DNA of 32,000 bases from an uncultured Nitrososphaerota archaeon. GTDB taxonomy: Archaea; Korarchaeota; Korarchaeia; Korarchaeales; Korarchaeaceae. The position numbers were made by a program, and so were the translations under genes. This document shows positions 408-21,921 of this stretch, in pieces; positions within the stretch are counted from its first letter, which is position 1, and each line of letters opens with the position of its first letter. The stretch is taken from the NCBI GenBank assembly GCA_964480775.1, contig CAYZRF010000021.1, forward strand, positions 456 through 32,455, written 5' to 3'. The notes beneath the pieces are model-generated. The model saw only the letters and a list, made by a program, of their open reading frames with translations, made no database searches and was not told the origin of the DNA.

Positions 408-791
408 TTAATCCATTACGGACAAACCTTTAACCCCTAACTCATCCTTTACTTTTCTCTTAAGAACTCTTTCAATTCTTTCCACCCCAACCTCATTCGC
501 ATCTATTAGTTCTAAGAAGAGGCATGCTAACTTTTCTGCTGCCTCTTCAGCTATTGGATTAGTGATTCTTATCTCGCAAATCGCGGACTTCATTAACTCA
601 GATAGCTTCTTTTTCGACTTCTCTCTTGAGGGCCTAAAAAATGGAAGGAGCATTTTCAACTTGATTTTAATAGAGCACACAGTGAAACATTGGATTGTAG
701 AGTAAAGGTAACCAGTCTCTTTTCGAAAATTATTACGAAAACCACCTAAGAAATATCTCATTTCATTGATTAACCAATTGAGTTGAACCAA
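408..791 (-). CDS. Small hypothetical protein upstream of moaC; the true start is probably internal (ATG at 653 or 593)
   Basis: ORF track entry. The N-terminal third of the long version overlaps the divergent promoter region and the start of the 783 ORF. The C-terminal part (MKSAICEIRITNPIAEEAAEKLACLFLELIDANEVGVERIERVLKRKVKDELGVKG) looks helical and protein-like. I recognise no family. Confidence 0.35.
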   Translation of the reverse strand: MVQLNWLINEMRYFLGGFRNNFRKETGYLYSTIQCFTVCSIKIKLKMLLPFFRPSREKSKKKLSELMKSAICEIRITNPIAEEAAEKLACLFLELIDANEVGVERIERVLKRKVKDELGVKGLSVMD

Positions 792-1160
792 ACCATATCC
801 TACGCAATAATCGGGACATTGGGCTTAGTTAGCTTAGTTGTATCCTTGCACGGCATCCAGCCATTTATCTCTGATATTGAAAGAAGAGTCGAAACTGGTT
901 GTGTATACTCAGTTCTCAGTGCAATAAGCAACGTAGTCAATTCGGTTGTTGGTGGAGGGTCCGCTAGCGGAATAATATTTACTCCATTCCAAGTTAACCT
1001 TTCAGTTGTTGACAGAATCCTTTTTGCCAGTTGTGGCGATTACAGGGCAGATCTTGAATTTCCTTTCGAAATATCTCCATTAAATGCCTCAATAAGGGGG
1101 TTGGTCAGAATAAAGGCAACATGGTCTGAAAAGGGAGTTTCACTGGTGATTAAGGGATGA
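783..1160 (+). CDS. Hypothetical N-terminally anchored protein, first gene of the six-gene overlapping operon in locus 1
   Basis: TTG start with no internal Met. The N-terminal hydrophobic segment is ISYAIIGTLGLVSLVVSL. N-x-S/T sequons NLS and NAS are present. Its stop overlaps the next start (ATGA at 1157-1160). Confidence 0.5.
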   Translation: MNQTISYAIIGTLGLVSLVVSLHGIQPFISDIERRVETGCVYSVLSAISNVVNSVVGGGSASGIIFTPFQVNLSVVDRILFASCGDYRADLEFPFEISPLNASIRGLVRIKATWSEKGVSLVIKG

Positions 1161-1510
1161 ATGTAGAGATTGATGAAGCTTTAAGAACCTTAGTTTTTGT
1201 AGCATTACTCCTTGCTTCAGGGGCAATCTCCAATAGATTAGCATACTTGAGAGTTAAGAACTTTGGATACAGACTAGCTTCTACCCTTACGGCCCTAAGC
1301 GAAAGATCAGTAAATCACAAAGTGGGTATAGCGCTAGAACTACCAGAGGGTAATTATTCCTTGATTTTCTTCGACAATGGTTCAGCTCTTTTCTCAATGA
1401 ACGGGTACGAAATAGTTCTGAACGGCATTTCAACGGACTTAAGGGGGGAGATCCGAGGCGGGAAAGAATTACAGATTACAAGCAGAGGGGAGCTAATCCA
1501 AGATGGATGA
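1157..1510 (+). CDS. Hypothetical N-terminally anchored protein (candidate minor pilin or TadE-like)
   Basis: The N-terminus MNVEIDEALRTLVFVALLLASG has acidic residues followed by a hydrophobic helix. It shares an ATGA overlap with the upstream gene. Sequons NYS and NGS are present. Confidence 0.55.
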   Translation: MNVEIDEALRTLVFVALLLASGAISNRLAYLRVKNFGYRLASTLTALSERSVNHKVGIALELPEGNYSLIFFDNGSALFSMNGYEIVLNGISTDLRGEIRGGKELQITSRGELIQDG

Positions 1511-1604
1511 AGAAATTGCTGATGCAGTTTGGTTCATAATCGTGATAGCAGCCCTAATACTAGCTATTTTGGCTAGCAACCCACCGCCCTCGCCAATAGG
1601 GTGA
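1503..1604 (+). CDS. Unlisted 33-aa single-pass membrane micro-ORF (MDEEIADAVWFIIVIAALILAILASNPPPSPIG)
   Basis: My own translation; it falls below the ORF-track size cut-off. The ATG at 1503 overlaps the stop of the previous gene, and its TGA at 1602-1604 overlaps the GTG/ATG start of the next. A GAGGGGAG SD lies about 10 nt upstream. It has the same acidic-then-hydrophobic N-terminal pattern as its neighbours. Confidence 0.35.
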   Translation: MDEEIADAVWFIIVIAALILAILASNPPPSPIG

Positions 1605-1882
1605 TGAAGCTGAGGACAATTGCCTTTTTGATTGCCCTCTTGCTTTTATCTCTTCTAGTTATTGATCTTTCAATAAAGAGCATAGTTCCTTCTTGGGCAG
1701 TTAAGGCGAGAGAAGATATTGCTATTAGAACAGTCGAACTCTTTTGGAAGAAGGGTGTTCGACTCGTTTGGGAAGGAGGCTACAGAGAGAACCTCGATCC
1801 CTATGGATTAAGCGTTAAAATCAAAATTCCAGTGCCAAGCTCGCCAAATCAGATATGTGTTGAGATTTCATATAGGAGATGA
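1601..1882 (+). CDS. Hypothetical N-terminally anchored small protein
   Basis: The N-terminus is MMKLRTIAFLIALLLLSLLVIDL. It overlaps both neighbouring genes, which indicates translational coupling. Confidence 0.55.
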   Translation: MMKLRTIAFLIALLLLSLLVIDLSIKSIVPSWAVKAREDIAIRTVELFWKKGVRLVWEGGYRENLDPYGLSVKIKIPVPSSPNQICVEISYRR

Positions 1883-2876
1883 GAGCTTGAGAGAGGTTTT
1901 AGCTATCATAACGATTTTGATCTTGATACTTCCAACATTTATCGTCCCGGATACTAATATCTTGGATAGCAGAATAATTGATGCCGCTTTTGCGGAAAGT
2001 TCTGCATGGATGGAGTCCGAAATAGCCCTACCAAGATATCTCTCATTCATTAGATGTCTGATAGATGAGTGGCTAGCCAATAACTATGGAAAGGATGTAG
2101 ATCAAGTAAGACTTCCAAAGATCATAAATACAGAGGATTGGAAGACATATGCCGAGAACGAAGCCAGGAGTAGGGGAATCATACTCTTTTGCAATGTAAC
2201 GCCCGTAATATTGAGTAGGTCTTATGCAGCTAATGAACTACAAAACAAGGTATTTGCTGGAGGATGTAAGCCAGGGGCTATAGGTGTGCAAAGTTCTTTA
2301 TCCATCTTTGTAGTTTCGAAGAGGGGTTTTGCAGAAGCAGTCGCAAAGAGAAATTACTCTATTTCAGTTTGTCACCCCTGCCTCTATTTTCTAATAAAGG
2401 AAGCTCACAAAAAAATAGAAAAAGAGTTAGAAAACTTGATACCAGACGAAACAGTAGTTGTTGGTGTGAGAAATGACTACATATCAGCAGTATTTCTGCT
2501 TAAATCCAAACTTTTAGATTTAGATAAGAAAATAGACGATCTTCTCACTTCATTAAAGAGAGAGTTCTCCTCAAAAGGAATAGAAATAGAATTCGACGTT
2601 AAGAGAGAAATTTCTATATCAAAAAGCGGAAATTCCGTGAGATTAACTGTATCATACAAGTTTTACATAGAAGTCTGGGATAAAGAGGTTATTTATTGGG
2701 TTAGAGGCCTTCGAAAAGGCTGGTATTTGAAAAATGATCTCAAATTGAAAGCCAAAATGTTGTGCAGGGTTCAAGAGGCGTTCAAAAGGATACCTACCAA
2801 AAATAGAGAGAAAGGACCTGAAAAAAGAGAGAAATCAAGGGAGAGGACAATACCTTGGCTAATACCGCCCAGATGA
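1857..2876 (+). CDS. Hypothetical 339-aa N-terminally anchored protein with a Lys/Arg-rich C-terminus; the likely real start is the TTG at 1887
   Basis: An AGGAG SD at 1874-1878 lies 8 nt before the in-frame TTG at 1887, giving M-REVLAIITILILILPTFIVPD. The C-terminus is KNREKGPEKREKSRER. I recognise no family. Confidence 0.6.
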   Translation: MLRFHIGDESLREVLAIITILILILPTFIVPDTNILDSRIIDAAFAESSAWMESEIALPRYLSFIRCLIDEWLANNYGKDVDQVRLPKIINTEDWKTYAENEARSRGIILFCNVTPVILSRSYAANELQNKVFAGGCKPGAIGVQSSLSIFVVSKRGFAEAVAKRNYSISVCHPCLYFLIKEAHKKIEKELENLIPDETVVVGVRNDYISAVFLLKSKLLDLDKKIDDLLTSLKREFSSKGIEIEFDVKREISISKSGNSVRLTVSYKFYIEVWDKEVIYWVRGLRKGWYLKNDLKLKAKMLCRVQEAFKRIPTKNREKGPEKREKSRERTIPWLIPPR

Positions 2877-3190
2877 GGATCATCCTTCTATTTAATGGCT
2901 TTAAAATATCAACCTATGATTGGTTCTTAGGATCAGAGACTATATTCAATATTTTAAGGAGAATTCTAAAAAGCTTGCTTCTCGAAGTAGATAAAGGACT
3001 TCAATTCCTTAACAGAGTATTTACAGCTTTACTTCCAATTATATTCTTCATCTGGGTCCTGCTTTGGATCATGAACTTGGAGGAATTAAAAGGCCTTCAA
3101 AAATACATCAAGTGGTGGGTTCTATTCTGTTTTGTAATGATAAGCATATCTCAAGGGCTTTCTTTCCTAATAAATGCGAAAATCGACTGA
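2873..3190 (+). CDS. Hypothetical small membrane protein, last gene of the plus-strand operon (the track starts it at the TTG at 2855)
   Basis: The ATG at 2873 forms an ATGA overlap with the stop of the previous gene (2874-2876). Two hydrophobic segments are present (LLPIIFFIWVLLWI and WWVLFCFVMISISQGL). The 3' end overlaps the convergent peptidase ORF by about 80 nt, so one of the two ends may be over-extended. Confidence 0.45.
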   Translation: MRIILLFNGFKISTYDWFLGSETIFNILRRILKSLLLEVDKGLQFLNRVFTALLPIIFFIWVLLWIMNLEELKGLQKYIKWWVLFCFVMISISQGLSFLINAKID

Positions 3191-3581
3191 GCTTTAGGTT
3201 TTTTATCAACTTTGGAAAGAGAACAATTGTAAAAGAAAACAAAAAATAGTAGGAATGGAAATACCCCCTTCCTCTACTCAAACCAATGATGCAAGCAATA
3301 AACAAGATTTTTCCAAGGTCAAAGGAGGAAATAAGAGGGGAAATAGCAATAATGAACTTACAATCTCCGCCTCCAAAGCCAACGCCGTATAATGACAAAG
3401 CAAAAGGAATAGCAGCAAATATTCTAATGAAGACAGAAAAATGTGAATTTCTTAATAAAGAAAAGATGGAATTTAGAGAAAATAGGAATATATTCAATCT
3501 ATTAGGTATCTTGCCTGTCTTGACATCTATCAGAGAACTCAACAATGCTTCCAACATGGCTATAGCCATCATGAGCATCAT
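3108..3581 (-). CDS. Short prepilin peptidase, A24 aspartic protease family, TadV/CpaA-like (no methyltransferase domain)
   Basis: Both catalytic Asp motifs are present in a polytopic 157-aa protein: LIDVKTGKIPNRL and GVGFGGGDCKFII (GxGD type). Confidence 0.8.
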   Translation of the reverse strand: MMLMMAIAMLEALLSSLIDVKTGKIPNRLNIFLFSLNSIFSLLRNSHFSVFIRIFAAIPFALSLYGVGFGGGDCKFIIAISPLISSFDLGKILFIACIIGLSRGRGYFHSYYFLFSFTIVLFPKLIKNLKLSRFSHLLGKKALEICLSLQNRIEPTT

Positions 3582-3582: not shown

Positions 3583-4158
3583 TCACCCGAATAAATTGCT
3601 GAGTAAGAAAGTTGTCATCAGAAAAGGTATTGAATAGTACATTAGCCACTTTAGGCCCCTTTCCACTTCTTCCGCAATAAATACTGTAAAAGCAGCTCCG
3701 ATTAATCCAAAAGACACGAAATTGCTGTGAGGCTTTCCAAGAAGCATGTACCAAAGGAGTTCAGATATCTTCGAAAAGGCAGCTGACATGACTCCCAACA
3801 TCATGATCAAGAACCTTGCTAAATTCCTTCTATTTTTCAAGAGAGCTGCTCTCTCGGCCTCCAGCTCTTCTACAACTCTCACAATGGATGCAGTGTCCCT
3901 AAGCACTCTACCGATAAATTCTGGCTCTGCTCCAGAGGTCAATATTTCAGCTAACCAAGGACCATAATCTCCGAGAACGGTTTGGAGATTCACCATAATT
4001 TCTTCAATTGTTTTGTCGTCGGCAATAGCTTTCATAACGAGATTCTTGATTTCAGGGTCAAAGAGAGCAACTTGCCTCAGTGCAACGACTGGGTGTCGAT
4101 TAAGTTCCAGTGAATCGGCTAGTGCCTCTATTATCACCGTTTTCGAAGTCTTTTCCAT
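3583..4158 (-). CDS. Half-size T2SSF-domain platform protein (TadC/EpdK-like)
   Basis: 191 aa. A soluble helical N-terminal part is followed by hydrophobic helices (FLIMMLGVMSAAF, FGLIGAAFTVFIA, YYSIPFLMTTFLL). It sits directly downstream of a second half-size paralogue and the secretion ATPase. Starts and stops overlap. Confidence 0.6.
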   Translation of the reverse strand: MEKTSKTVIIEALADSLELNRHPVVALRQVALFDPEIKNLVMKAIADDKTIEEIMVNLQTVLGDYGPWLAEILTSGAEPEFIGRVLRDTASIVRVVEELEAERAALLKNRRNLARFLIMMLGVMSAAFSKISELLWYMLLGKPHSNFVSFGLIGAAFTVFIAEEVERGLKWLMYYSIPFLMTTFLLSNLFG

Positions 4159-4634
4159 AACTTAAACCTCCTAAATGAATATCTGAAGATTGAAACCACG
4201 AATAGACAAATAGAGGTTGGACCGATAAGAGAGGAAGGTATTGTACCGAGAGCAGAAGCGCTAGCCAATAGCATCATTGTTAAGAAAGCCATAGATAGTC
4301 GGATGGCCATTTTATGGTCAAGTTCCTTATTTTCAAGCTCTATTTCCACTCTCATGAAGTTCTTTAGGGTATTAACGATGTCTTGAGAGTTTGCCCCTTG
4401 AAGAAGGGATCTAATTGCCACAGCTAAAGGGCGATAACTCAATTGTTCACAAAATGCGTTTAATTTGCTCTGAAGAGTGTATCCTTCAACAGAGGAAGTA
4501 AGAAACATAGTTCTCATTTCTTTAGCGTAAGGTTCAAGTTTGGACCTAGCTACAAGTTCAACGGCCTTAATCGGACTCCAAGTGAGTCCTAGAGAAAACA
4601 GCTGAATGAACCTCATAACTTGCTTTCGATCCAT
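4134..4634 (-). CDS. Half-size T2SSF-domain platform protein (TadB/EpdJ-like)
   Basis: 166 aa with the same architecture as the neighbouring 191-aa protein. It overlaps the ATPase gene by 22 nt. Confidence 0.6.
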   Translation of the reverse strand: MDRKQVMRFIQLFSLGLTWSPIKAVELVARSKLEPYAKEMRTMFLTSSVEGYTLQSKLNAFCEQLSYRPLAVAIRSLLQGANSQDIVNTLKNFMRVEIELENKELDHKMAIRLSMAFLTMMLLASASALGTIPSSLIGPTSICLFVVSIFRYSFRRFKLWKRLRKR

Positions 4635-6046
4635 GAAGTAGCTCCCTTTATCCTCTTGATAACTTCTTCATTGGTCTTCAAGTTCAGCGAAGATCTGATC
4701 ATTGAGAGAAACCTCTCTGAGGGTTTTGGTTTTACCTCCTCCCAACCACTATCCTCATACCTGTAGAGTTTTTCGGCAACCCTAAATTCCATAAACAACG
4801 TTAAACACCCCATTAGAGCATCTTCCATTCCCCATCTAAACCATTTCCTCTCCAACGAGACAGGATCCTTAGCATGCGTTGTTGCGATCACCCTGAATCC
4901 GCTTTCTTTTGCTAGAGCAAAGGCTTTAGCGTGTTCTTCTGTAAGAATTTCCCCTAAAAAGACTAAATCAGGATTTCTATGCAAAAAGGTGGTCACCACA
5001 CTCTCCCTTTCACCAGGAAAGACGTAGGGATGATGTTTAAGGCCATAACGAGAAAAATCTTCAATTTCCCTTACTTCCTCGATGCTTATGATCCTCCATT
5101 CCCTAGCGGAATATGCTAGAAGAGAGTTAGCTAGTGTGGTTTTGCCTACGCCCGTTCTTCCAACAATCATGATTGGCTGTCTTTCGTACATGGCTTGTAC
5201 TAAATAGGCTGCAAGGCTTTCACTTATCGTCCCTAACGCTATTAAGCGCGACATTGGAAGTCTCGGCAAAGCAGAAAGATTTCTTGCGTCAAACGAAGGT
5301 TTTGATATTGGAGGAATGTCAACTCCAAGTCTAATCTTAGAGTCCTTAAAGGTAAACTCAATCTTTACGGTGGGTTGGTTGAGGTTAAGGGACCCATAGG
5401 GATGCAACTCCACTATCGTTCTAATCTTTTCAAACTCCCTCCTATCTAGGATTAAATTGCTAATTTCAACCCTACCTGCCTCGATGTGATCTATGTATAC
5501 CGGAGAACCCTCAAGGCCGTAGATCTCAGTTATATCATTGCCAGTTGCCAAGATAAGAATGGGCCAAGCCTTTGTAGATCTTACAGCTGCTTCTAAGATA
5601 ATGTCATCTCTTAAAATCTTATTAGAGCCGAGTATCTTTTTTATCTGGTTCTTTCGAAAATTTATAACGTCCCAAAGATCGATTTCCAATGAATCTTCTG
5701 GATAAACTCCTTCCATTAACCTAGAGAGACCTATTGCAAAGATCACACTTCCTGAACCGCAAATCCAGCTCTTGGGTATGAAATAAGTCCTTTTACCATT
5801 CATGCCAAGCATAGCACATCCGAGATCCTCTATTATTTCATCAAAATGTATCTTTGGGGTTTTTAGAGGAGGATAGGGTACTTCCTTTACAAACGCAATG
5901 TGCTTCTCGCTTCCAAGTGCTGCCAACAATCTTGCCTTGTCGTAGGTCTGATAAGGACTGAGAAAAAGATCTAAGGAAAACTCCTCTACCCACTTTATAG
6001 CTGCATTTACGAATCTATGATATGAGTTCTCCTCGTTAAGGCCCAA
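4613..6046 (-). CDS. Type IV filament secretion ATPase, CpaF/TadA/VirB11-like
   Basis: Motifs seen: Walker A IMIVGRTGVGKTTLANSLL, Asp box IISIEEVREIE, Walker B PDLVFLGEILTEEHA and His box FRVIATTHA. The N-terminal domain is about 290 aa. The TTG start is preceded by GGGGTGA. Confidence 0.85.
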   Translation of the reverse strand: MGLNEENSYHRFVNAAIKWVEEFSLDLFLSPYQTYDKARLLAALGSEKHIAFVKEVPYPPLKTPKIHFDEIIEDLGCAMLGMNGKRTYFIPKSWICGSGSVIFAIGLSRLMEGVYPEDSLEIDLWDVINFRKNQIKKILGSNKILRDDIILEAAVRSTKAWPILILATGNDITEIYGLEGSPVYIDHIEAGRVEISNLILDRREFEKIRTIVELHPYGSLNLNQPTVKIEFTFKDSKIRLGVDIPPISKPSFDARNLSALPRLPMSRLIALGTISESLAAYLVQAMYERQPIMIVGRTGVGKTTLANSLLAYSAREWRIISIEEVREIEDFSRYGLKHHPYVFPGERESVVTTFLHRNPDLVFLGEILTEEHAKAFALAKESGFRVIATTHAKDPVSLERKWFRWGMEDALMGCLTLFMEFRVAEKLYRYEDSGWEEVKPKPSERFLSMIRSSLNLKTNEEVIKRIKGATSWIESKL

Positions 6047-6055
6047 CTACTTGGT

Positions 6056-6337
6056 TCACCCCGTGGTGAGGTTGCCTCTGGCTAAATTCTCACTTTCTGA
6101 GCCCCAGAGGCTGCTAAGATGTTCGCTTAACCAATCAATGAAATCCGAAAATTTCTCTTCAGTAAGATCCGGTAGATTCCACAAGAACTCCAAAGCGTTT
6201 GCTACAGGGTTTACAACAAGAGCGAAGAAAGCAGCTATGGTGGCAGCAATCAAAAGAGCAGTTTCTGTTGTCTGAGTTAAACCAGATTCATCCTCTAAAA
6301 AACCCTTGATGAATCTTTTAATTTTCTTAAACAGCAT
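6056..6337 (-). CDS. Flp-type prepilin-like protein (93 aa from the internal ATG at 6337; the track extends it to 6415)
   Basis: A GGAGGTGA SD at 6342-6349 lies 4 nt upstream of the ATG at 6337. The sequence MLFKKIKRFIKGFLEDESG|LTQTTETALLIAATIAAFFALVV resembles the bacterial Flp leader and cleavage motif (F-L-x-D-E-x-G then T/E-containing hydrophobic helix). The gene sits immediately upstream of the CpaF-like ATPase. Confidence 0.7.
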   Translation of the reverse strand: MLFKKIKRFIKGFLEDESGLTQTTETALLIAATIAAFFALVVNPVANALEFLWNLPDLTEEKFSDFIDWLSEHLSSLWGSESENLARGNLTTG

Positions 6338-6609
6338 TTTCACCTCCCAGAGGGGGAAAGCTTGGAAAGGGTATTTAAGACGTCTCTTAGCAGAATACAT
6401 TGTTCTTGCAATCATTATTGGGCGTTTATGCTACTAAACACGTTGTTTTACTGATATCACTCATCAGAAAAACATAGGATATATTCAAGAGTAACAGGGT
6501 AGATATCCAAAGTTTTGCACTTAATTTATCATTTATTATCCCATCAAAAGGTTAATCTAGGAGGGGATTAGGACTAAAAGGATTCCTTTCTTCAAACTTT
6601 CTCATCAAC

Positions 6610-7770
6610 TCATCCAAAGCCTTCCAATACCAGAAGCATCCTATGGGCATCGGTTCTGGTAGCTTCAGAAGGGTTAATTGCTGCCCATATCAGTCTCTTT
6701 ATCCCTTCTCCTTGAGGATCGCTAATTGAGCGAAGTTCATGCGGCCTTACTTCTAGAGATTTAGAAATAAGCCTAATAAACCAAGGAAATAGGGCCAAGA
6801 TACAATTCTTAATGTCACCTGAATTTAAGAGATGTCTCGCTGCTCTAATTTCTTTAGATCCCTCTCTTCTTAACTTACTAACTAGTAAACAAAAAGAAAG
6901 ATCTCTCAACGCAATTCCCAAAAAACCTATGGAGGAAATCAAAAAGAGAAAGGTGTTGAAGCACCCAGTTAAGACGGTGAATAGAGCAGATAAGATCAGC
7001 CTCTTTTTTGCTAATTGCTTCGATGTCTTAATTAGATCAAAAACATCTAAATTTTCTACTTCTTTGCTTGGAATAGTTAGACGGCTTGATAACTTAAAAA
7101 CCAAAAAAGGGCTGAGAAATAGGGCAAAAAAAGATAAATTTGTCTTCAAACGATAGATTAATGCAAAAACAGTAGAAGCTATGTTTAAACTAAATGCTAT
7201 GTGGGAGAGTCTTATTTCTCCCTGGTAGCTCATATAACTAAGTAGAGGAATGCCAATAATTGATGAAAGTAGAAAATAGAAATTTGGAAAAGAAAAACTA
7301 ACGACATTGAAGTCCCCCAAGAAAACTGCTATAGAAAATGTAACAGAACTAACTAGGGCCGAAATTGAAAGGTATTTTAGGAACGTAGGGAAGTTCTTTC
7401 TCTTCCCTATCTTCCGAGCTAGCAATAGGCTAACTGAATCACTGAAACCATACAACGAAGTCCATCCATACAGGAGCGCATGAATTGTTGATATAGAATT
7501 ATCCAAATTCACAAAGGCTGGCAGATATAGAAACATCAGTACACCAGATATTCCAAGGCTTGTAAGACTTTGGAGATAAGAACATGCTCCTAGCATGGCC
7601 CCTAGAACACAAACGAGAAATAAACCTCCAAGATCGTCATAGGACACTTTTATCTGCCAAGCTAGACTATCCCCTATGCTTACTTCTCTTTTAAGTGCGC
7701 AAAAGTAGAGAGAGATTAACAGCACACCGTAAAGAATAGTTAAGAGATACAGGGCCTTATTTGGGTTCAA
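6610..7770 (-). CDS. 386-aa polytopic membrane protein of unknown family with a soluble C-terminal tail
   Basis: About 9-10 hydrophobic segments by eye. The C-terminal region of about 90 aa is hydrophilic (LRREGSKEIRAARHLLNSGD...EATRTDAHRMLLVLEGFG). Its TTG start lies inside the last codons of the upstream ParA-like gene (14-nt overlap). Confidence 0.6.
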   Translation of the reverse strand: MNPNKALYLLTILYGVLLISLYFCALKREVSIGDSLAWQIKVSYDDLGGLFLVCVLGAMLGACSYLQSLTSLGISGVLMFLYLPAFVNLDNSISTIHALLYGWTSLYGFSDSVSLLLARKIGKRKNFPTFLKYLSISALVSSVTFSIAVFLGDFNVVSFSFPNFYFLLSSIIGIPLLSYMSYQGEIRLSHIAFSLNIASTVFALIYRLKTNLSFFALFLSPFLVFKLSSRLTIPSKEVENLDVFDLIKTSKQLAKKRLILSALFTVLTGCFNTFLFLISSIGFLGIALRDLSFCLLVSKLRREGSKEIRAARHLLNSGDIKNCILALFPWFIRLISKSLEVRPHELRSISDPQGEGIKRLIWAAINPSEATRTDAHRMLLVLEGFG

Positions 7771-9118
7771 TGAAATCCCTTCCCATGCCTTTGAGTTTTA
7801 GAAATGATAGTGCAAGATCCAAGAACATTCTATACTCTTGCGATAAGGATGAAATATCTAATTCCTGCCTAGCTGTCAAAGAGCTAGCTGTTTTCTCATC
7901 AAGACCCGCCAAAAGAAGTGCTTCCTTTAGATTTTTCCTCGTTATGAATGCTTCCATTCCATCCGAGAACCTAAGTCTAACCTTTCTTCTAAAGAAAGGG
8001 AATAAATCAATGTGAAAACTAGAAGATTCTATCTCTCTGTAAATATCTTTAGGAACTGGAACCTCTTTGGCCTGAACAATTCCCTTTATAGCTTCTAGTC
8101 GTGGATTGGTTTCTTCCAACAAATCACTGTACTGATTTGATAAATAACCCTGTCCCGACGCGCCTAAGTCAATAGTTGGAACTTGATTATCAAAATTTCT
8201 TACAAAATGAAAGTCCTTACGAAATATCTTGATTAAATGCTTGGCCACACTCCTTTCTTTATAATCAATATCACCGTTGAAACCTTCAATTAGGGAGTGA
8301 TAGAAAGTTGCCTCATGCATTCTTGAAAGTGAAATTGAACAACTTTGAATGCATCGAGAAAACGACTCATCAAAGGGCAATAAATAAGCAGGGACATTCC
8401 AATAAGTTTTTACTAGCTCTTGCAGTTCAGTTGATTGTAAATTATGCCCATATTTGTTTATTATGACAAAAGGAGTCGAGAGATTGTTAATATCTAAAGA
8501 AAAAAGGTGTCTTTTTGTTTGAAGAATGGAATTTTTGTCTGGAAGCAAGACTGGGATTAGCAAACTGACCCATCTTGAGAGAGCCTTAAGCAGAACCCTT
8601 GCTGAGTAGTCCGATGATGGAAAATCTACTATGAGGAACTCAACACCAATCTCGCGAATATATTCCTCTAAAGATCTTAGTCTAAGCAAAAGAAGATCAA
8701 TTGGTTCGTACAACAGCGTCGAAACATCATCGCTTCCAGCAGGAATTACTTTAAGCTTAATGAGATCAGAAAGTTTGCGCCTGATACTCGAGTCTTCGAG
8801 TGAAATCAACGGATCATATACTACTTCCTCAGGGAATTTATTCCCAAGTAAAACATCGTGAAGACCATGAAATCCCTCATTTCCAAGGAATAAGTACGTT
8901 AGATCGGCGTTATGTAGATTAGCATCCATAACCGCAGCCATCTTACCCTCTTCTTCCATTAGATATGACATTATGAAGGATAGAGCCATGCTAACCGAGG
9001 TCTTACCAACCCCTTCGGTGCCAAAGAAACCTACTTTTAGCATTAACCCATCAATATGATGAACGCCTGTCTCAAAGACCCTATTTAAGGAGATCTTGCC
9101 AGCGCAGTTTTCGGACAA
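7757..9118 (-). CDS. ParA/MinD-superfamily ATPase, TadZ/CpaE-like, with a long C-terminal extension
   Basis: A Walker A-like motif VGFFGTEGVGKTSVSMAL is followed by AAVMDANLHNADLTYLFLG, which matches the ParA/MinD layout. The signature lysine of the KGG deviant Walker A is absent (TEG). The maximal ORF overlaps the moaA stop by 34 nt. An alternative start is the ATG at 9043 (MLKVGFFG). Confidence 0.65.
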   Translation of the reverse strand: MSENCAGKISLNRVFETGVHHIDGLMLKVGFFGTEGVGKTSVSMALSFIMSYLMEEEGKMAAVMDANLHNADLTYLFLGNEGFHGLHDVLLGNKFPEEVVYDPLISLEDSSIRRKLSDLIKLKVIPAGSDDVSTLLYEPIDLLLLRLRSLEEYIREIGVEFLIVDFPSSDYSARVLLKALSRWVSLLIPVLLPDKNSILQTKRHLFSLDINNLSTPFVIINKYGHNLQSTELQELVKTYWNVPAYLLPFDESFSRCIQSCSISLSRMHEATFYHSLIEGFNGDIDYKERSVAKHLIKIFRKDFHFVRNFDNQVPTIDLGASGQGYLSNQYSDLLEETNPRLEAIKGIVQAKEVPVPKDIYREIESSSFHIDLFPFFRRKVRLRFSDGMEAFITRKNLKEALLLAGLDEKTASSLTARQELDISSLSQEYRMFLDLALSFLKLKGMGRDFIEPK

Positions 9119-10047
9119 TGGGCTTCTGTGGACTTAAAGTAAGGTTCTCTTTGTGCAACAGCTCTTAATAAGGAGTTGACAACTCCGCCCCAGCTTCCTG
9201 ATCTAAGTTCCTTTAGAAACTTAACAGGAGGTTTACTGGAAAGAAGGCATGTTTTAAAAGCGCCAAAATGAGTGACTCTAATTTTAGTGCAGTGATAGCA
9301 GAAATCAGGATTGCTCATAGACCTTACAAGCTCAACCTTAACATCTCCTAGGTCATATACTGGCCTATCGTGCATATCTTGACGTATTTTAATCGAAATT
9401 GCCTTTTCCTTTATTCTTTCCTCCAGCTCATGGAAATCTACGCCGTATTTCCTAAGAAGAGGGGAGTTTGGATCTCTATCTTGTAGTTCAATTAGCTGGA
9501 CGTCAGCACCTATGTTAGCCGCAAACTCGATCAAAGAATCGAGTTCTCCTTCATTTAACCCCCTTAACATGACGCGGTTAATTTTAAGACGTTTTATACC
9601 GAACGATATAGATTTTTCTATCCCCCTCAACACCTTTTCGAGGCTATCTACACCAGTAATTCTTTGATAAACCTCCTTTTTCAAGGATGGGAGGTTTACG
9701 TTGACCCTGTCGAGACCAGCTTCAATTAAGCCTTGAATTCTTTCCTCCAGAAGGGTTCCGTTTGTAGTGAGTCCTATGTCCTTTATGCCCTCAACCCTCC
9801 TGATCTGAGCTACTATCTCACTCAGATCTTCTCTAAGGAGGGGCTCACCCCCAGTCAGCTTTATTGTTCTGACGCCAAAGTCAGCAAGGATGGCAACGAG
9901 TCTACCAATGTCCTCAGGAGTCATTATTTCATTTTCTTCGTTATGATAGCCCTCAGCATGGCAAAAGAAGCATCTTAGATTGCATTCATGGTTAACTGAG
10001 ATCCTCAAGTTGAGCAGAGGCCTGTCATAGGGGTCTCTGAGTATCAT
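9085..10047 (-). CDS. moaA: GTP 3',8-cyclase MoaA (radical SAM)
   Basis: The radical SAM cluster motif CNLRCFFCH is present, followed by KLTGGEPLLR and GLTTNG, and a C-terminal Cys cluster CYHCTKIRVTHFGAFKTC. Confidence 0.92.
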   Translation of the reverse strand: MILRDPYDRPLLNLRISVNHECNLRCFFCHAEGYHNEENEIMTPEDIGRLVAILADFGVRTIKLTGGEPLLREDLSEIVAQIRRVEGIKDIGLTTNGTLLEERIQGLIEAGLDRVNVNLPSLKKEVYQRITGVDSLEKVLRGIEKSISFGIKRLKINRVMLRGLNEGELDSLIEFAANIGADVQLIELQDRDPNSPLLRKYGVDFHELEERIKEKAISIKIRQDMHDRPVYDLGDVKVELVRSMSNPDFCYHCTKIRVTHFGAFKTCLLSSKPPVKFLKELRSGSWGGVVNSLLRAVAQREPYFKSTEAHCPKTALARSP

Positions 10048-10645
10048 GACGAATTGCCAACTATGTCATATCGAATTTAATAATAACTCTTACCTTTTAC
10101 GAAGGATGGAAAGCCCAGTCCATGAACATAGAGCCAAATCCCCTCATAGATTGAGATATGCCGTTTATACGGTTAGCTCCTCTAGATATAAAGCGATAAA
10201 AGAAGGAAGAGACTTTACTGATCCTACTGGAGACTTAGCAGTGAAGTTGATAGAATCGGCTGGAAACTCAGTTGTCATAAGGAAAGTACTTCCTGACGAG
10301 AAATCATCAATAAGACGCGAGTTAGAGAGTGCTCTAAAAGAAGCAGACGTCATCATTCTGTGTGGTGGAACTGGATTACATCCAGAAGACGTAACTGTCG
10401 AGGCCGCAAGCGGAATATTTGAGAAAGAAATACGGGGCTTTGGCGAGCTATTTAGGCATCTTAGCTTTCAAAGCATCGGATCTGCTGCTATGTTAAGCAG
10501 AGCAACAGCGGGAATTTGTAGGGGAAAGGCGATTTTCTGTCTTCCAGGATCAACGAAGGGAGTAGAGCTAGCCCTCAAGAAACTTATCCTGCCAGAGGCT
10601 GGGCACATAATTTGGGTTGCTAGAGGGTATAAGAACGGTTCTTGA
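10046..10645 (+). CDS. moaB: Molybdenum cofactor biosynthesis protein MoaB/MogA family; the probable real start is the ATG at 10106 (MESPV...)
   Basis: Motifs seen: YTVSSSRY, ILCGGTGLHPEDVTVEA, GFGELFR, MLSRATAG and CLPGSTKG. An AT-rich TATA-like element TTTAATAATAA at about 10074-10084 lies about 25 nt upstream of 10106, which suggests a leaderless or short-leader transcript. Confidence 0.85.
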   Translation: MTNCQLCHIEFNNNSYLLRRMESPVHEHRAKSPHRLRYAVYTVSSSRYKAIKEGRDFTDPTGDLAVKLIESAGNSVVIRKVLPDEKSSIRRELESALKEADVIILCGGTGLHPEDVTVEAASGIFEKEIRGFGELFRHLSFQSIGSAAMLSRATAGICRGKAIFCLPGSTKGVELALKKLILPEAGHIIWVARGYKNGS

Positions 10646-10648
10646 ATT

Positions 10649-12625
10649 CTAACCTAGAAAAAAACCAATATCATCGCCAACAACATATCCAGGCATGTTA
10701 GAGAGCTTATTTTTGAAGTCATCAGATTTGAGAACCTGAAGAAACAGCTTAACAGAGCGTTTATCCAATCTGTCCATCCTTACAAGGAAATCGTACCTCT
10801 CAGTAGTTAGAGGAATGAAATCCAACCCTTTAATCCTTGCTACATACTCTATTCCAAGGCCTACGTCTGCTTCTCCTCTTGCCACGGCCTCAGCAACACC
10901 AGAGTGAGTTTTCCTCTCGAATCCATACCCGTTTATACGCTCTTTTAGCGTCTCAACTGAAATACCCTTCTCTGCAGCCAACCTAGCGATGAAGTAATCC
11001 AAAAGTATCCTTGTTCCAGAGCCTCTATTCCTGTTCACAAACCTTACGTCGTTCCTCAACAAGTCCTCTATCCTGCTAATTCCTTTGGGATTTCCTTTTG
11101 CAACAATTAATCCTTGAACGCGTTCGTACCCTCTAACGAGCTTTGCTACGCCCTTTAAAGAGTAATCCTCCAAGAATCCAACGTTGTACTCACCTGTCCT
11201 AGGATTCAGCGCATGAACCCCTGAGATGTCTGCCTCTCCAGCCCTAATAGCTTCAAAACCTCCCAGAGATCCAACGTTCACGCGGACTATCCTTAGATTT
11301 TCCTTTTTCTTGAGCATTGAGAGGAGAAGTTCAGCTCCTGGGCAGTGACTTCCTATGAATCCAAGATCTGCAGGTCTAACCCCTTCCTGAAAAGGAATGA
11401 CGAGGACCTTTTCTCCTCTTTCTACGTATTCCACATTCTCTGATATTTCTACATATCCGTCTGCCCTGCTGAGAGTTGATATAGCCTCAGATCCTGTAGG
11501 TATTGGAAAAGCCAATATCTCTCCCTTCGCATCTGACAGCAAAGCAACGGGGAGGAAGTTCCTCCTCCCAAGAGTGGAGCGCACTCTCCTTCCCATCTTT
11601 GCTTTTATCGGAACTTGCTCCAAGGTCTTAATTCCAGCCATTTTCCTCACTAAAGGAGATACAAACTTTCTATAGGCAATGAGCGCGCTTGTTGGATATC
11701 CTGGCAACCCAATTACGAACTTATTTCCGATAACACCGAGAATAAAGGGCTTTCCTGGTTTCATAGCCACGCCATGAACGAGTACCCCAGGTTTTCCCGC
11801 TTTGTCTATCGCTTTATACACTACATCACCAGCCCCAGCACTTGTACTTCCAGATACGAGAACTAGATCAGCCCACTTGAGAGCTCCCTTTATTTCACCT
11901 AAGATAGACTCTAGGTCGTCTGGTAATATCCCTAGAACCTTTGGCTCTCCTCCATCCTGCCAAACAGATGTTGAAATAGTGTATGAGTTTATGTCATAGA
12001 TCTTACCGTAATCCAATGGATTTCCAGGAGCAACGAGCTCGTCTCCTGTGCTAAGAATGGCCACAACAGGTTTCTTTACCACTTTTACTTTCGTTCTCCC
12101 TATGGCTGCTAGCAATCCTATCTCCCTGGGACCTAGAATGCTGCCGGAGTGCAATAGGGTTTCTCCTGCAGCCACATCAGTACCCGTGCCCTGAATATTG
12201 GCTCCTGGTGCAACAGATTTGAAAATAAGGAGGAGATCTCCCTTAACTTCTGTTCTCTCCACTAGGACAACCGCATTTGCTCCTGGAGGAATAACGGCTC
12301 CTGTAGCTATCTCAACCGCTTCTCCCTCAGAGACCACACCTTTAAAGGGCTTTCCAGCCTCTGCAATGCCTATAATCCTTAAAGTTACGGGGTTCTCCTC
12401 GTCCGCGCCGAAGGTGTCCTCTGCCTTCAGGGCATATCCATCGTACATGGCCCTATCGAATGAGGGGACATCCACCTCTGAAGGAATGTCCTCTGCAAGC
12501 ACCCTACCAACGGCATCCTTGATAGGTACATCCTCTGATTTAGGGACATAGGAGTAATGCCTTTCTATTAAGCGAGAAACCTCTTCAACGGAAACTAGCT
12601 TTCTAAACTCTTTTCTCTCTCCCAT
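10649..12625 (-). CDS. moeA: Molybdopterin molybdenum/tungsten transferase MoeA fused to a C-terminal periplasmic-binding-protein-like (molybdate/tungstate-binding type) domain
   Basis: The N-terminal roughly 410 aa are collinear with the neighbouring MoeA ([42 protein letters not shown]). The extra roughly 240 aa ([10 protein letters not shown]...VNVGSLGG...NRNRGSGTR) look like a PBP-fold domain. Confidence 0.88.
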
Positions 12626-12634
12626 ATAGATCCC

Positions 12635-13921
12635 TCAGAGCGTGCTTAATTCTGAAACATTCGTAGATATGTAGCGCTTGAATGGGAGAACCTCTACGAT
12701 CTCTCCCTCCTTATACCCCTCTACATCCTCAGGTACGATGAGAAATGCGTCCGCTTTTACCAATGAACTTGCAATTCCAGCACCGGAGATCCTAACAGGG
12801 ATTGCCAACCACTCATTTCCACTTCTCTTAAGCTTGACTCTAGCGAAATGCAAAATTCCTGGTCTTGAAGGTACCTTGCCCACAAGCCTAGCCCTAAGGG
12901 TGTTTATCATCCTCTCACCCTTAATCCCAAGAAATCTCTCAATTAAGGGGACAAGAAATAGCAATGCAGCTACGGCAGCAGATACAGGATAGCCTGGAAG
13001 ACCTATAAATGGCTTCCCATTTGAAAGAACTGAAAGCAGGGTAGGTTTCCCAGGCATAACCCCTACTCCATGAACGATTATCTTTGCTCCAAGTTTTTCA
13101 AGAGCATCTGGAACGAAATCGGATGTTCCAACGCTGGTTCCTCCGCTCGTTAGGATGACATCTGCCTCCTTGCACTCGCTTATTCTCCTTGCGAGTTCAT
13201 CTGCATCATCGTCTACAATTCCCTTGTAAGAAAAGAGACCCCCGTGTTCCTCTACAATTCCTTTAACGAGCCATCTGTTGGAATTCACAATTTTTCCTGG
13301 GGCTTCCTTATCTCCTACCTCAATTAACTCATGTCCCGTGCTTATCATGCCAATAACAGGCTTCTTACGAACCAAAACCTCTTTTTTGTTGATAGAAGCT
13401 AGCAAACCTAGTTCAAAGGCCCCTATTATGGTTCCCTTTGGGAGCAGGACTTCACCTGCCCTGATGTCCTCACCCCTCCTTGAAACGTTCCGGAACGGCG
13501 GAACTTGTTCATAGATTCTGACCATTCCACCACTTTCCTCAGAATTCTCCACCTCTACAACCGCATCGGCCCCTTTTGGCAAGACTGCCCCAGTGTGGAT
13601 CCTTACAGCCTCTCCAGCCCTGACTTCCAAGCTTATCTCCCTGCCAGCTTGAATTTCTCCAATGACTCTGAGTGCAATTGGAGAATGTTGGGATGCTCCG
13701 TATGTATCCTCAGCCCTGACGGCGTATCCGTCCATAGCTGCCCTGTCAAACGGCGGAACATCTTCTTGAGCTCTTATATCTTCAGCTAAAACCCTGTCTA
13801 GGGCATAATCTAGCCCTACGTACTCAGCCTCGGTGGGCTTTAGGTCAAGAGAACTCATGAAAGTTTCCAGAGCTTCTCTTACCTTCATGATCGTTCTGAA
13901 ACCCTTCCATTTGTGGGACAT
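12635..13921 (-). CDS. moeA: Molybdopterin molybdenumtransferase MoeA (stand-alone paralogue)
   Basis: Motifs seen: [38 protein letters not shown] and LPGYPVSA. Confidence 0.9.
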
Positions 13922-13974
13922 CTTGGAACATTTGCGAGTGCACTTATTACGTTTGATGTATTTATCATACTGAG

Positions 13975-14730
13975 ATGAAAGGAGGAACAGGTGGTGTTCT
14001 TACAACCAGAGATCTTATTAGATACGATAGACAACTTCTGATCATTGGTAAGGCTGGCCAGGAGAAACTAAAGAGAGCATCCGTTGCAATAGTGGGAATA
14101 GGTGGGTTGGGTAGCCCGGCTGCTTTCTACCTTGCTGGGGCTGGGGTGGGAAGGCTGATATTGATAGATCCTGAGAGACCAGAGCTGAGCAATTTGAACA
14201 GACAAATAATACATTGGGAAGGCGATTTTTCTCTTCCCAAAGCCCAGTCTGCCGCAGAGAAATTGAGAAAATTCAATTCTGACATCGTTATAGAGCCTAA
14301 ATCAGTCAAAATTACAAAAGAAAACGTTTCAGAAGTCTTAAGTGGGGTAGATGTGGTTGTTGATGGACTTGACAACTTCGAGACAAGGTACCTCCTCAAT
14401 GAGTACTGTTTGGAGCACGGAAAGCCATTTGTACACGCAGCAGTTAGGGGGTTGGTTGGTCAGGCAACGACAATCGTACCTCAAAGATCTCCATGCTTAA
14501 GGTGCATTTTTCCAGAGCCTCCAAAAGCTGAGAAAAAATTCCCGATTTTGGGGGCAACAGCAGGAACTCTCGGCTGTATTGAAGCGTTAGAAACGATTAA
14601 ACTGATAACTGGCTTTGGGAGACCTCTGACAGGGAGACTTCTCATAATAGACCTTGAGGACATGACTTTTAACCTGATAGGGGTGAAGAGGCGGCCAGAC
14701 TGTCCCGTGTGTGGAGGCCTCCATAGTTAG
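13975..14730 (+). CDS. moeB: ThiF/MoeB/HesA-family E1-like adenylyltransferase
   Basis: Motifs seen: RYDRQLLI, the nucleotide-binding loop VGIGGLGSPAAFYLAGAGVG, DNFETRYLLN and two CxxC pairs (CLRC, CPVC). No rhodanese domain is present. The symbol is given by context with the Moco genes; a ThiF or UbaA-type role is equally possible. Confidence 0.85.
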   Translation: MKGGTGGVLTTRDLIRYDRQLLIIGKAGQEKLKRASVAIVGIGGLGSPAAFYLAGAGVGRLILIDPERPELSNLNRQIIHWEGDFSLPKAQSAAEKLRKFNSDIVIEPKSVKITKENVSEVLSGVDVVVDGLDNFETRYLLNEYCLEHGKPFVHAAVRGLVGQATTIVPQRSPCLRCIFPEPPKAEKKFPILGATAGTLGCIEALETIKLITGFGRPLTGRLLIIDLEDMTFNLIGVKRRPDCPVCGGLHS

Positions 14731-16756: not shown

Positions 16757-17038
16757 ATGTTAAGGAGCAAGGTTTTAGAGGCAATAAAAGAGTTTAACGA
16801 ATTTAGAAGTCCAGAGGCAACAGCAAACTCGTTTTAATTAAAGATAATAGGATTATCGTTAGGATGAATGGAACCTATTGTAGAACATGTGGCCTCTATG
16901 ATTACTTTGAGGATCTTTCATGGAAAATCAAGGGATTACTTGAAAGCTAACGTAAAGATTCTGTCGACGAGAAGAATAGATCATTTCTCCTATGAAATCA
17001 TATATGAGGTGGAATCTCTTAGTAAAAGATCTAAATGA
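16757..17038 (+). pseudogene. Small CxxC protein gene interrupted by two compensating frameshifts (or two homopolymer sequencing errors)
   Basis: Three segments read as one coherent protein of about 93 aa. Frame A 16757-16825 gives MLRSKVLEAIKEFNEFRSPEATA. The -1 frame 16825-16947 gives KLVLIKDNRIIVRMNGTYCRTCGLYDYFEDLSWKIKGLLES. Frame A resumes at 16946-17038 with ANVKILSTRRIDHFSYEIIYEVESLSKRSK. Both switches fall at AAA runs (16825-16827 and 16943-16945). An alternative is an intact 56-aa ORF at 16868-17038. Confidence 0.4.
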
Positions 17039-20044: not shown

Positions 20045-20285
20045 CTACTCCCATAATGTGATAGACCGGGTTGATTTAGATTATTGAACAAATAAAATGC
20101 TGTGGATCAACATTAAAATCTACCTATGTTTACTAGAAATTACTTATATTTTACAAAATATGATAAAGAAATTCTAGATAAAAGCCAGAAACAGTTGATT
20201 CTAGTAGAAAACAATTCATATAGAATTTTTTGGTTAAATTAACTTATTTTTAAGTTTTCCAAATAGATGGTGATCTTTGATAAGT

Positions 20286-20319
20286 AAAAAATGAAACCTA
20301 AGTAAGAAAAGATAAAAAA
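20286..20319 (-). terminator. Oligo-T tracts downstream of the pilin gene (candidate archaeal intrinsic terminator)
   Basis: On the minus strand, one T6 run (20319-20314) lies 17 nt after the stop at 20336-20338. A second T6 run lies at 20291-20286. Confidence 0.4.
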
Positions 20320-20335
20320 GAGATGAAAGGAGGGC

Positions 20336-20785
20336 CTACCCTCCCCTGTAGAGGTATTCGGTCTGGGTGCCACCAGGACCATAGACTATTATAGAGTAAC
20401 TCTGTGTAGCACTGTAGTTACCTAAGTTTACAGTAAGCTCTGCTACTCCATTTACTTCTAAAACGTCATCGGAACCGCTAACCGCGCCAGCGAGATTGCT
20501 TACATCAAGCTTCTGGTTGTCGATAAAGACTTGCCAAGCGGCAGTACTTCCCGCGCCTGAAATATCATTGGGCCCTAAGTTCTTTACGTATATTATGCCA
20601 TTACTTGATCCCATTCCTGATACTGAAAGTACGGCCAGCGTTGTCTGCCCACCAACGGCCGAAGTCCTTCCTAAGGCGCCAAAGATGTAGCTTCCAATTG
20701 GACTAAAGATTAGTAGGGCTAATGCCACTCCTATTACTAGAATTATAACCTCGACGGCAACTCTCGATATTCCTGCTCTTTTCAT
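20336..20785 (-). CDS. Type IV pilin-like protein with a class III signal peptide (pilin paralogue 1)
   Basis: The ATG at 20785 has an AGGTG SD about 7 nt upstream (the track uses the GTG at 20794). The N-terminus is MKRAG|ISRVAVEVIILVIGVALALLIF. The core shares YVKNLGPNDI and WQVFIDN with the 24504-24974 protein. The gene has its own promoter and terminator. Confidence 0.75.
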   Translation of the reverse strand: MKRAGISRVAVEVIILVIGVALALLIFSPIGSYIFGALGRTSAVGGQTTLAVLSVSGMGSSNGIIYVKNLGPNDISGAGSTAAWQVFIDNQKLDVSNLAGAVSGSDDVLEVNGVAELTVNLGNYSATQSYSIIVYGPGGTQTEYLYRGG

Positions 20786-20835
20786 ATCCCACACCTTCTA
20801 TTCTTTTGTTGACCATGTAGTATACTAATGGAGAG

Positions 20836-20844: not shown

Positions 20845-20850
20845 CCTACC

Positions 20851-21422: not shown

Positions 21423-21426
21423 GATA

Positions 21427-21918: not shown

Positions 21919-21921
21919 GAT

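Follow-up and report, generated by a model that had tools for sequence, protein, structure and literature searches.

A candidate major pilin of an archaeal Epd-like/Tad-like pilus locus, probably the founder of a small family separate from both Flp and Epd pilins

We analyzed a 32,000-nucleotide (nt) stretch of DNA from an uncultured archaeon (GenBank assembly GCA_964480775.1, contig CAYZRF010000021.1, positions 456 to 32,455; hereafter the window), focusing on a minus-strand gene for a putative prepilin of 93 amino acids (aa) at window positions 6056-6337. A first-pass annotation, made from the sequence letters alone, had described it as an Flp-type prepilin with a bacterial-style leader. The gene and the signals around it are as follows (ORF, open reading frame):

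6056-6337, minus strand: prepilin gene, a 93-aa ORF, stop codon included in the coordinates; starting from the alternative GTG at 6343 would add 2 residues
6281-6337, minus strand: leader peptide, residues 1-19 (MLFKKIKRFIKGFLEDESG), ending at the invariant Gly19, the predicted cleavage site
6059-6280, minus strand: predicted mature pilin, residues 20-93, 74 aa
6341-6347, minus strand: GGAGGTG, which is Shine-Dalgarno-like ahead of ATG 6337 or else supplies the alternative GTG start (6343-6341)
6365-6402, minus strand: conserved promoter-like region from a four-way DNA alignment, with a putative promoter function

The ORF runs from an ATG at 6337-6335 to a TGA at 6058-6056, and its product is MLFKKIKRFIKGFLEDESG-LTQTTETALLIAATIAAFFALVVNPVANALEFLWNLPDLTEEKFSDFIDWLSEHLSSLWGSESENLARGNLTTG, with the predicted cleavage junction MLFKKIKRFIKGFLEDESG/LTQTTETALLIAATIAAFFALVV (here and below, a slash marks a cut). 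The ORF and its translation, the ATG preceded by GGAGGTG, the 74-aa mature protein and its acidic C-terminal half (8 Asp/Glu versus 2 Lys/Arg) were all as first described. The longest mechanical ORF reaches an ATG at 6415 and yields 119 aa. In the alignment of close relatives, conservation sets in at F-L-x-D-E-S-G; three homologues begin at, or no more than two residues from, the position of M27 of the 119-aa ORF, and the upstream extensions of two further homologues are unrelated in sequence. The upstream DNA, aligned four ways between the window and the related contigs L001, L002 and L003, contains a block, GACGTCTTAAATACCCTTTC (6384-6365), that is invariant in all four and includes the TATA-like element TTAAATA (6378-6372). 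Because this promoter-like block sits inside the supposed extension, it rules out, together with the homologue alignment, the 119-aa reading from 6415, and the earlier preference for the short start was thereby upheld. In L003, 4 nt are deleted from the stretch that separates the TATA-like block from the ATG. Since L001 and L002 lack an ATG at the position equivalent to 6337 yet keep the GTG that corresponds to 6343-6341, the predicted translation start is ATG 6337 or the GTG two codons before it (6343). In a distant GC-rich relative (L006), a TATA-like TTTTATAG lies 35 nt before the start codon, the same spacing as that between the TATA-like element of the window and GTG 6343. With transcription predicted to start near 6348, the transcript would have a very short leader.

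A second invariant block of 11 nt, CAATGTATTCT (6402-6392), lies 14 nt upstream of the TATA-like element between diverging flanks, and upstream of it the DNA of the window and L001-L003 is no longer alignable. Kept in all four close loci, this minus-strand block (6392-6402) may be a binding site for a regulator. The independent promoter proposed in the first pass was consistent with the conserved TATA-like element, from which promoter function is likely. The long AT-rich region that had been described upstream is AT-rich, but only mildly: the 272-nt spacer 5' of the pilin gene has a GC content of 33-36%, compared with 41.6% over the whole window, and ranks at the 11th percentile among segments of that length. 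Scans of the whole window for tRNAs and Rfam families gave no matches, and the spacer therefore holds no known RNA.

Relatives were collected with a profile HMMER search over 1.84 billion cluster representatives and a profile search of 5.8 billion proteins. The first search of the 5.8 billion proteins returned seven close relatives with 72-89% identity from uncultured Thermoproteota, one of them an identical 93-aa call; both profile searches combined gave a whole family of about 23 clusters, 72-98 aa in length and again from uncultured Thermoproteota, none of which carried a functional annotation or a Pfam domain. This pilin family is previously undescribed and missing from Pfam and NCBIfam. 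Between the window and L001-L003, synonymous divergence (dS) exceeded 1.3 and was saturated, nonsynonymous divergence (dN) was 0.03-0.055 and dN/dS was approximately 0.02-0.04, and residues 13-70 were nearly invariant among close relatives whose leaders vary freely (alignment A1). The pilin gene is real and under strong constraint.

Across 21 family members (alignment A4), G19, A27, L29, A35, F37, V42 and P44 are invariant, and the leader before G19 varies in sequence and in length (6-23 residues). Counting from the junction after G19, 15 members have Arg or Lys at -2, where the window's own subgroup has Ser or Thr; all 21 have Val, Leu or Ile at +1, and +2 holds Thr, Ser or Asn. An acidic residue (Glu or Asp) occupies +6 in 19 members, and Ser does so in the other two. 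Six members have the ordinary archaeal basic leaders RRRG, RRKG or KRKG, and the acidic D-E-S-G leader, by sequence comparison, appears as the trait of a subgroup. N-x-T sequons at the C-terminus are found in the window subgroup and in a subgroup at middle distance.

In the representatives search, matches to protein A repeats (P0015), a T/A-rich repeat protein (P0011) and a helicase-associated repeat protein (P0009) were set aside as composition or repeat artefacts. Residues 47-76 (6110-6199; NALEFLWNLPDLTEEKFSDFIDWL, in the second-helix region) match staphylococcal protein A repeats weakly, and the multi-repeat protein P0015 reaches an E value of 3.8e-5, which we judged to be chance or convergent helix-turn-helix similarity. 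Searching PDB sequences with the family profile gave only chance matches (protein A repeats, coiled coil) at E values of at least 0.05.

The pilin gene is embedded in a set of genes that points to a pilus assembly operon:

4613-6046, minus strand: T2SSE/VirB11-superfamily pilus assembly ATPase, beginning 9 nt past the pilin stop; Pfam T2SSE E 2e-12
4134-4634, minus strand: small membrane platform protein 1, 166 aa, TadB/TadC-like, with a single T2SSF domain by way of its L006 orthologue
3583-4158, minus strand: small membrane protein 2, 191 aa, presumed second platform half, by position and inference only
3108-3581, minus strand: short A24 aspartyl prepilin peptidase, 157 aa, motifs D19 and GGGD73; Pfam Peptidase_A24 E 8.5e-11
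6610-7770, minus strand: polytopic membrane protein, 386 aa, without a Pfam or NCBIfam match; same-position homologues in L002, L003 and L006
7757-9118, minus strand: P-loop protein, MinD/ParA-like but divergent, 453 aa, placed as TadZ/FleN would be, upstream of the pilin-ATPase unit
783-2876, plus strand: four convergent ORFs (783-1160, 1157-1510, 1601-1882 and 1857-2876), candidate leaderless minor pilins or pilus-associated proteins

The best NCBIfam matches of the ATPase were FlaI, TrbB, VirB11 and the TadA family, and its best PDB matches were afGspE (2oap, 1.7e-14) and FlaI (7.7e-11), with CpaF reaching only 1e-3, which makes the enzyme archaeal in type. Because it is near to archaeal GspE/FlaI and far from CpaF, the locus is not a bacterial Tad locus placed in an archaeal bin; a recent bacterial origin or contamination was ruled out by this ATPase and by the relatives, all of which come from archaeal metagenome-assembled genomes. 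Platform protein 1 of the window has no Pfam match of its own. Its L006 orthologue (28% identity, E 2e-15) carries one T2SSF domain (PF00482, E 6e-5, 23.4 bits versus a cut-off of 25.2), a score just under threshold, and from this single domain the platform appears to be split in two genes, as in Epd and Tad systems. Small membrane protein 2 matches no family in Pfam or NCBIfam, and its position and sequence are kept in L001, L003 and L006. The split-platform layout consists of these two small membrane genes after the ATPase; the second of them and the MinD-like gene are placed by weak matches and position. The peptidase scored 42.7 bits with Peptidase_A24 (cut-off 26.5), with weak NCBIfam matches to EppA and FlaK, and is presumed from its sequence and location to be the dedicated processing enzyme of the pilin; the first pass had proposed the same processing logic, and the operon does include this enzyme. 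The MinD-like protein gave weak matches only (CbiA E 0.0014, minD_arch E 1.6e-4, PDB MinD E 0.18) and is conserved in L002 and L006; its likeness to TadZ is drawn from Denise 2019 and may be one of position. Searches of the PDB with the platform halves, the peptidase and the MinD-like protein were uninformative.

A search for related loci with alignment A2 found three close relatives only (L001-L003), of which the L001 contig is cut after the platform genes and that of L002 inside the ATPase. By local BLAST, L003 and L006 keep the gene order of the window; L006, whose pilin is 49% identical over the full alignment, reads MinD-like protein, membrane protein, pilin, T2SSE ATPase, a 171-aa protein, a 188-aa protein and Peptidase_A24. 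The L004 pilin gene (34% identical) lies head-to-head with a group made up of a T2SSE ATPase, two small proteins and a weak match to A24, and L012 (36% identical) has an ATPase, a peptidase-like gene and then the pilin. The ATPase is syntenic in L001, L002, L003, L004, L006 and L012, and the A24 peptidase in L003, L004, L006 and L012. A secretion ATPase stands beside the pilin in four independent lineages, with an A24 peptidase recognisable in three, and the genomic association expected of a type IV pilin (A24 peptidase, secretion ATPase and platform) is present in the window and recurs in L003, L006, L004 and L012. The four plus-strand ORFs encode 125, 117, 93 and 339 aa, each with a hydrophobic helix at or within a few residues of the initiator and none with a cleavable leader (examples of their N-termini are MNQTISYAIIG... 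and MNVEIDEALRTLVFVALLLA...). They matched no family; homologues of all four occur in L003, of three in L006 and of two beside the pilin in L011, where the pilin adjoins them and no ATPase is nearby.

Several further observations concern the surroundings of the operon. Between the polytopic membrane gene and the pilin, L003 (1290-3958) has two extra genes with Ig-like surface-protein domains (CARDB above threshold, BatD borderline, Cohesin and A2M weak), a comparable insert in L002 (about 5170-7990) is suggested by size only, and neither gene left remnants in the 272-nt spacer or elsewhere in the window. A 111-aa plus-strand ORF (2855-3190) overlaps the 3' end of the minus-strand peptidase gene (3108-3581) by about 80 nt; both ORFs have L003 homologues that overlap there too, and the similarity of the peptidase ends at residue 129. 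In the remote members L010 (695-1417) and L012 (2757-3461), the gene directly downstream of the pilin codes for a GT2 glycosyltransferase, and these neighbouring genes, together with the N-x-T sequons, suggest that the pilin surface may be glycosylated. The pilus locus is also flanked by a molybdenum-cofactor biosynthesis cluster (window 9085-14730 and 26070-26885), whose members, read from their translations, we take to be a MoaA-like radical SAM protein, a MoaB/MogA-like, two MoeA-like and a ThiF/MoeB-like protein; the MoCF_biosynth domain at 26070-26885 is the sole member confirmed by Pfam. MoaC and MoaA genes are likewise found near the pilin in L011 (7054-8446), which is probably conserved synteny and not a functional link.

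Within the window, positions 17031-26057 contain a second, conventional type IV pilus locus with platform, ATPase, pilins and peptidase:

17031-18629: T2SSF platform protein of the two-domain type
18629-20044: T2SSE ATPase
20336-25034: seven pilin-like ORFs, two of them with the classical junctions KRAG/ISRV and RRRG/VSQV
25320-26057, plus strand: PibD/FlaK-type peptidase with an Arc_PepC_II domain

This second locus supplied an internal reference for the cleavage site. When the family hidden Markov model (HMM) was run against 467 control ORFs drawn from the window and four related loci, its best match, at 11.2 bits, was the canonical class III pilin at 24504-25034, aligned in register at RRRG/VSQV. 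Because G19 is invariant and aligns in register with this canonical archaeal pilin of the same genome, we infer a class III (prepilin-type) signal with cleavage after Gly19, in agreement with the first-pass annotation. The general features of a type IV pilin signal are present, namely a charged leader of 6-23 aa, an invariant Gly at -1 and a hydrophobic helix, with the caveat that residues +1 to +7 (LTQTTET, with Thr at +2 and Glu at +6) are polar. The hydrophobic core spans A27-V42 (nt 6212-6259) and is followed by the invariant Pro44; further on come an amphipathic acidic helix (residues 60-84) and a C-terminal N-L-T sequon (nt 6065-6073). AlphaFold2 run on A4 (mean predicted local distance difference test, pLDDT, 68.8) placed a leader helix at residues 2-15, a break at 16-20 (DESGL) and two helices at 21-57 and 60-84, of 37 and 25 residues, with no beta structure; a model from seven sequences only was poor (pLDDT 56.7). 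In this model, topology and shape are those of a prepilin without a globular domain.

The alternative that survives best keeps the protein a pilin and moves the cut to the invariant Ala27 (T-E-T-A/LLIAATIA), which would leave a 27-residue leader and a purely hydrophobic, archaeal-type mature N-terminus. In its favor are the odd polarity of residues +1 to +7 after G19 and the lack of an acidic +5 in most archaeal pilins (PMC4371748). Five remote members also carry E-A/LL[VL][AT] (EALLVA, EALLLT). This sequence presumably fits a FlaFind-type pattern. Yet the residue before A27 is Thr, Gln, Glu or Met and never basic, whereas Arg or Lys precedes G19 in 15 of the 21 members; residues 20-26 are invariant in the window subgroup, like mature sequence, while the leader before G19 varies; the helix break in the AlphaFold2 model is at 16-20 and not at 27; and both an Flp HMM (see below) and the canonical pilin of the same genome put the cleavage Gly on G19. 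We therefore regard a cut after Ala27 as improbable.

A second alternative is that the protein is a genuine bacterial Flp/Fap member (PF04964) from a Tad locus shared or recently exchanged with bacteria, processed and assembled exactly like Flp. Its leader, KRFIKGFLEDESG-LT, is close to that of Caulobacter PilA, KFVTRFLKDESG-AT, the conserved Thr at +2 is as in Flp (PMC10710030), and the peptidase is short like TadV. Flp_Fap was also the Pfam family matched most often within the family: it is the only Pfam match of five of the 21 members (13.8-15.3 bits, E 0.018-0.05), with residues 15-47 in register on profile positions 1-31. We further built a Flp profile from 30 verified Flp pilins related to Caulobacter PilA, which is consequently narrow and Caulobacter-like; tblastn of Caulobacter PilA against plasmids had given three Phyllobacterium matches, too few for a profile, and a protein search was used instead. 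With this HMM, 18 family members ranked above all 467 control ORFs (window subgroup 13-15 bits), and the canonical pilins of the same genome obtained no score; in the alignment G19 falls on the Gly where Flp is cleaved and E25 on Glu5 of Flp, for which one-residue insertions are needed.

Membership in Flp itself was not borne out. The first-pass annotation had named the Flp_Fap HMM as the test that could refute it, and the window protein had no match at E values up to 10, with the five relatives at 14-15 bits against a gathering threshold of 32.2. Comparing the family with Flp by hhalign aligned 15 leader columns only, RFIKGFLEDESGLTQ with KFVTRFLKDESGATA (P 2.8e-4, probability 41%). The Flp motif comprises Gly at -1, Glu or Asp at +5 and Tyr at +6, and PilFind uses [GAS]-x4-[DE] (PMC3244431, PMC10710030); the window protein has Gly at -1, but Thr at +5, Glu at +6 and Thr at +7, and no Tyr6. 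The mature protein has 74 aa (about 60-75 across the family) with a second helix and is predicted to be all-helical without a beta domain, against 40-60 aa for mature Tad pilins (PMC10710030). Moreover, the ATPase is far closer to archaeal GspE/FlaI than to CpaF, and Pfam and NCBIfam recognised neither a secretin nor any other Tad-specific gene in the locus. Because six members have RRRG, RRKG or KRKG leaders, the resemblance to Flp is not family-wide; judged by these comparisons it appears real but weak and lies mostly in the leader. On the profile evidence the protein does not class as an Flp family member, and we consider this explanation very unlikely. What held of the label "Flp-type" was the functional and partial leader analogy, and what held of "bacterial-style" was the D-E-S-G motif of one subgroup, set beside basic leaders elsewhere in the family and an archaeal ATPase.

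Equally unlikely is a protein that forms no filament at all, that is, an uncleaved single-pass membrane protein with an accessory or regulatory role for the pilus machine or an unrelated function, which would fit the lack of a significant match to pilin models, the two family members located away from pilus genes and the ATPase gene that directly follows without an obvious terminator, so that a subunit-level excess of transcript is not evident, but which has against it that this is the sole protein of the locus with a leader-Gly-hydrophobic helix arrangement, that its size, helical architecture and extreme helix conservation suit a polymerising subunit, that the dedicated peptidase would otherwise be without an evident substrate in the operon (the plus-strand ORFs being leaderless), and that the C-terminal N-x-T sequons and the nearby glycosyltransferases point to an exposed surface.

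We therefore favor, with a probability of roughly 0.7, the reading in which the gene encodes the major pilin of the surrounding archaeal Epd-like/Tad-like (type IVc-like) pilus operon and founds a new small pilin family that is neither Flp nor Epd. It is very probably the major pilin because its linkage to the ATPase and the A24 peptidase matches the published Epd-like/Tad-like layout. Several points weigh against this reading. No pilin model in Pfam, NCBIfam or the PDB was matched significantly, a Foldseek search of the AlphaFold2 model against the PDB returned nothing below an E value of 9.6, and the confidence of the model itself is moderate (pLDDT 68.8). The mature N-terminus is, over its first seven residues, unusually polar for a pilin, the acidic residue stands at +6 instead of +5, and none of the 21 members has the PilFind motif. 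Position was the main ground for assigning the second platform protein and the MinD-like protein. The member at L008/L009 stands alone with no pilus genes near, and no pilus genes were seen around the L010 member, where the contig ends about 430 nt away on the upstream side. The support for cleavage and for a filament comes from sequence and model.

If this major-pilin reading is correct, the gene would be transcribed from its own TATA-type promoter, with a start about 10 nt before the ATG, and the 93-aa precursor would insert into the membrane so that the basic leader faces the cytoplasm and the acidic C-terminal helix the outside. The A24 aspartyl peptidase (3108-3581) would then take off the 19-residue leader after Gly19, and the ATPase (4613-6046), acting on the split platform (4134-4634 and 3583-4158), would extract the 74-residue helical subunit and stack it into a thin filament. 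Its core would be formed by the hydrophobic N-terminal helices, and its surface by the second amphipathic helix and the glycosylatable N-x-T tail. The MinD/TadZ-like protein, the upstream polytopic membrane protein and the plus-strand leaderless pilin-like proteins would be probable accessory parts.

That archaea have relatives of Tad pili with short pilins is an idea already published, as is the proposal that bacterial Tad/Flp pili derive from archaeal Epd-like systems, which rests on comparisons of ATPases, platforms and pilin lengths, mostly from methanogens. The window contributes an uncultured lineage of Thermoproteota whose locus has that layout, combining a short helical pilin and a minimal peptidase with an apparently split platform and a MinD-like ATPase; what is new is a Thermoproteota pilin family with an Flp-like leader in part of its members that lies outside Pfam, NCBIfam and the PilFind motif. 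It is conceivable, although we hold it doubtful, that the family is a surviving archaeal sister lineage of bacterial Flp pilins, its [KR]-F-x-x-x-F-L-x-D-E-S-G-x-T leader and short peptidase being inherited and not convergent. Were this true, an archaeal pilin would for the first time be linked to Flp directly at the sequence level, and the proposed archaea-to-bacteria transfer of Tad would become experimentally testable. If the locus encodes merely another archaeal adhesion pilus, the gain is the annotation of a handful of hypothetical proteins. The family further offers an alignment from which the annotation of such pilins can be seeded, a natural pairing of peptidase and substrate to set against a PibD-type pair 20 kb away in the same genome, and a concrete test of an ancestral versus a convergent origin of the Flp leader motif.

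Three known systems bear comparison. The canonical class III pilins of the second locus (24504-25034 and 20336-20794) share with the new family a basic leader, Gly at -1, a hydrophobic residue at +1, Ser or Thr at +2 and a hydrophobic helix, and differ in their length of 150-180 aa and in a beta-rich C-terminal domain that is weakly archaellin-like. Their locus has a two-domain platform and a PibD-type peptidase, whereas members of the new family are half that size and predicted to be all-helical, with a split platform and a minimal peptidase.

The Flp/Tad pilins (e.g., Caulobacter PilA, PDB 8U1K) are likewise small and all-helical without a globular beta domain, and their leaders are alike in having about 13-20 residues that end in [FL]-L-x-D-E-S-G, with Gly at -1, Thr at +2 and an acidic residue near +5. 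Of the parts of a Tad locus, the window shows an ATPase, an apparently split platform, a short A24 peptidase that has no methyltransferase domain and a gene for a MinD-like second ATPase. The new family differs in scoring under the Pfam threshold, in Glu at +6 without Tyr6 or the Flp motif of 8 residues, in a longer mature protein (74 aa) with its second amphipathic helix, and in the RRRG leaders of some members; its locus differs in the archaeal type of the ATPase, nearest to archaeal GspE/FlaI, and in that no secretin, Rcp, TadD, TadE, TadF or TadG was recognised in the Pfam and NCBIfam scans.

The Epd pili of Methanococcus maripaludis (EpdE/MMP1685, peptidase EppA; system 1/clade 1 of Makarova 2016, "Epd-like" in Denise 2019) formed the third comparison. 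Epd pilins have K-G/Q junctions with Gln at +1, required by EppA, and Glu at +5 (PMC4371748), whereas +1 is Leu, Val or Ile in all 21 members here and the acidic residue is at +6; no family member matched Class_IIIsignal (PF04021) at E values up to 10. EppA is large, compared with 157 aa for the peptidase of the window (NCBIfam EppA 20.3 bits versus a cut-off of 450), and the hosts are methanogens versus Thermoproteota. Epd-like and Tad systems have in common short pilins, a split platform and a MinD/TadZ-like ATPase (Denise 2019, PMC6668835; Makarova 2016, PMC4858521), and the layout also includes extra membrane proteins, minor pilins and a dedicated peptidase (Makarova 2016, Denise 2019, Sivabalasarma & Albers 2026). 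The window locus fits this layout, from which it may belong to the clade that ATPase and platform phylogeny defines. The window encodes two peptidase-substrate sets, which fits a dedicated pair for each locus, and its two peptidases beside two types of substrate recall, by analogy, the division of labour between FlaK and EppA. In common with the Epd system, the pilin locus is archaeal, combines an ATPase with two presumed platform genes and a MinD/FleN-like ATPase, and encodes a short pilin that has no globular domain, further membrane proteins, several candidates for minor pilins and a peptidase of its own beside a second, general one in the genome.

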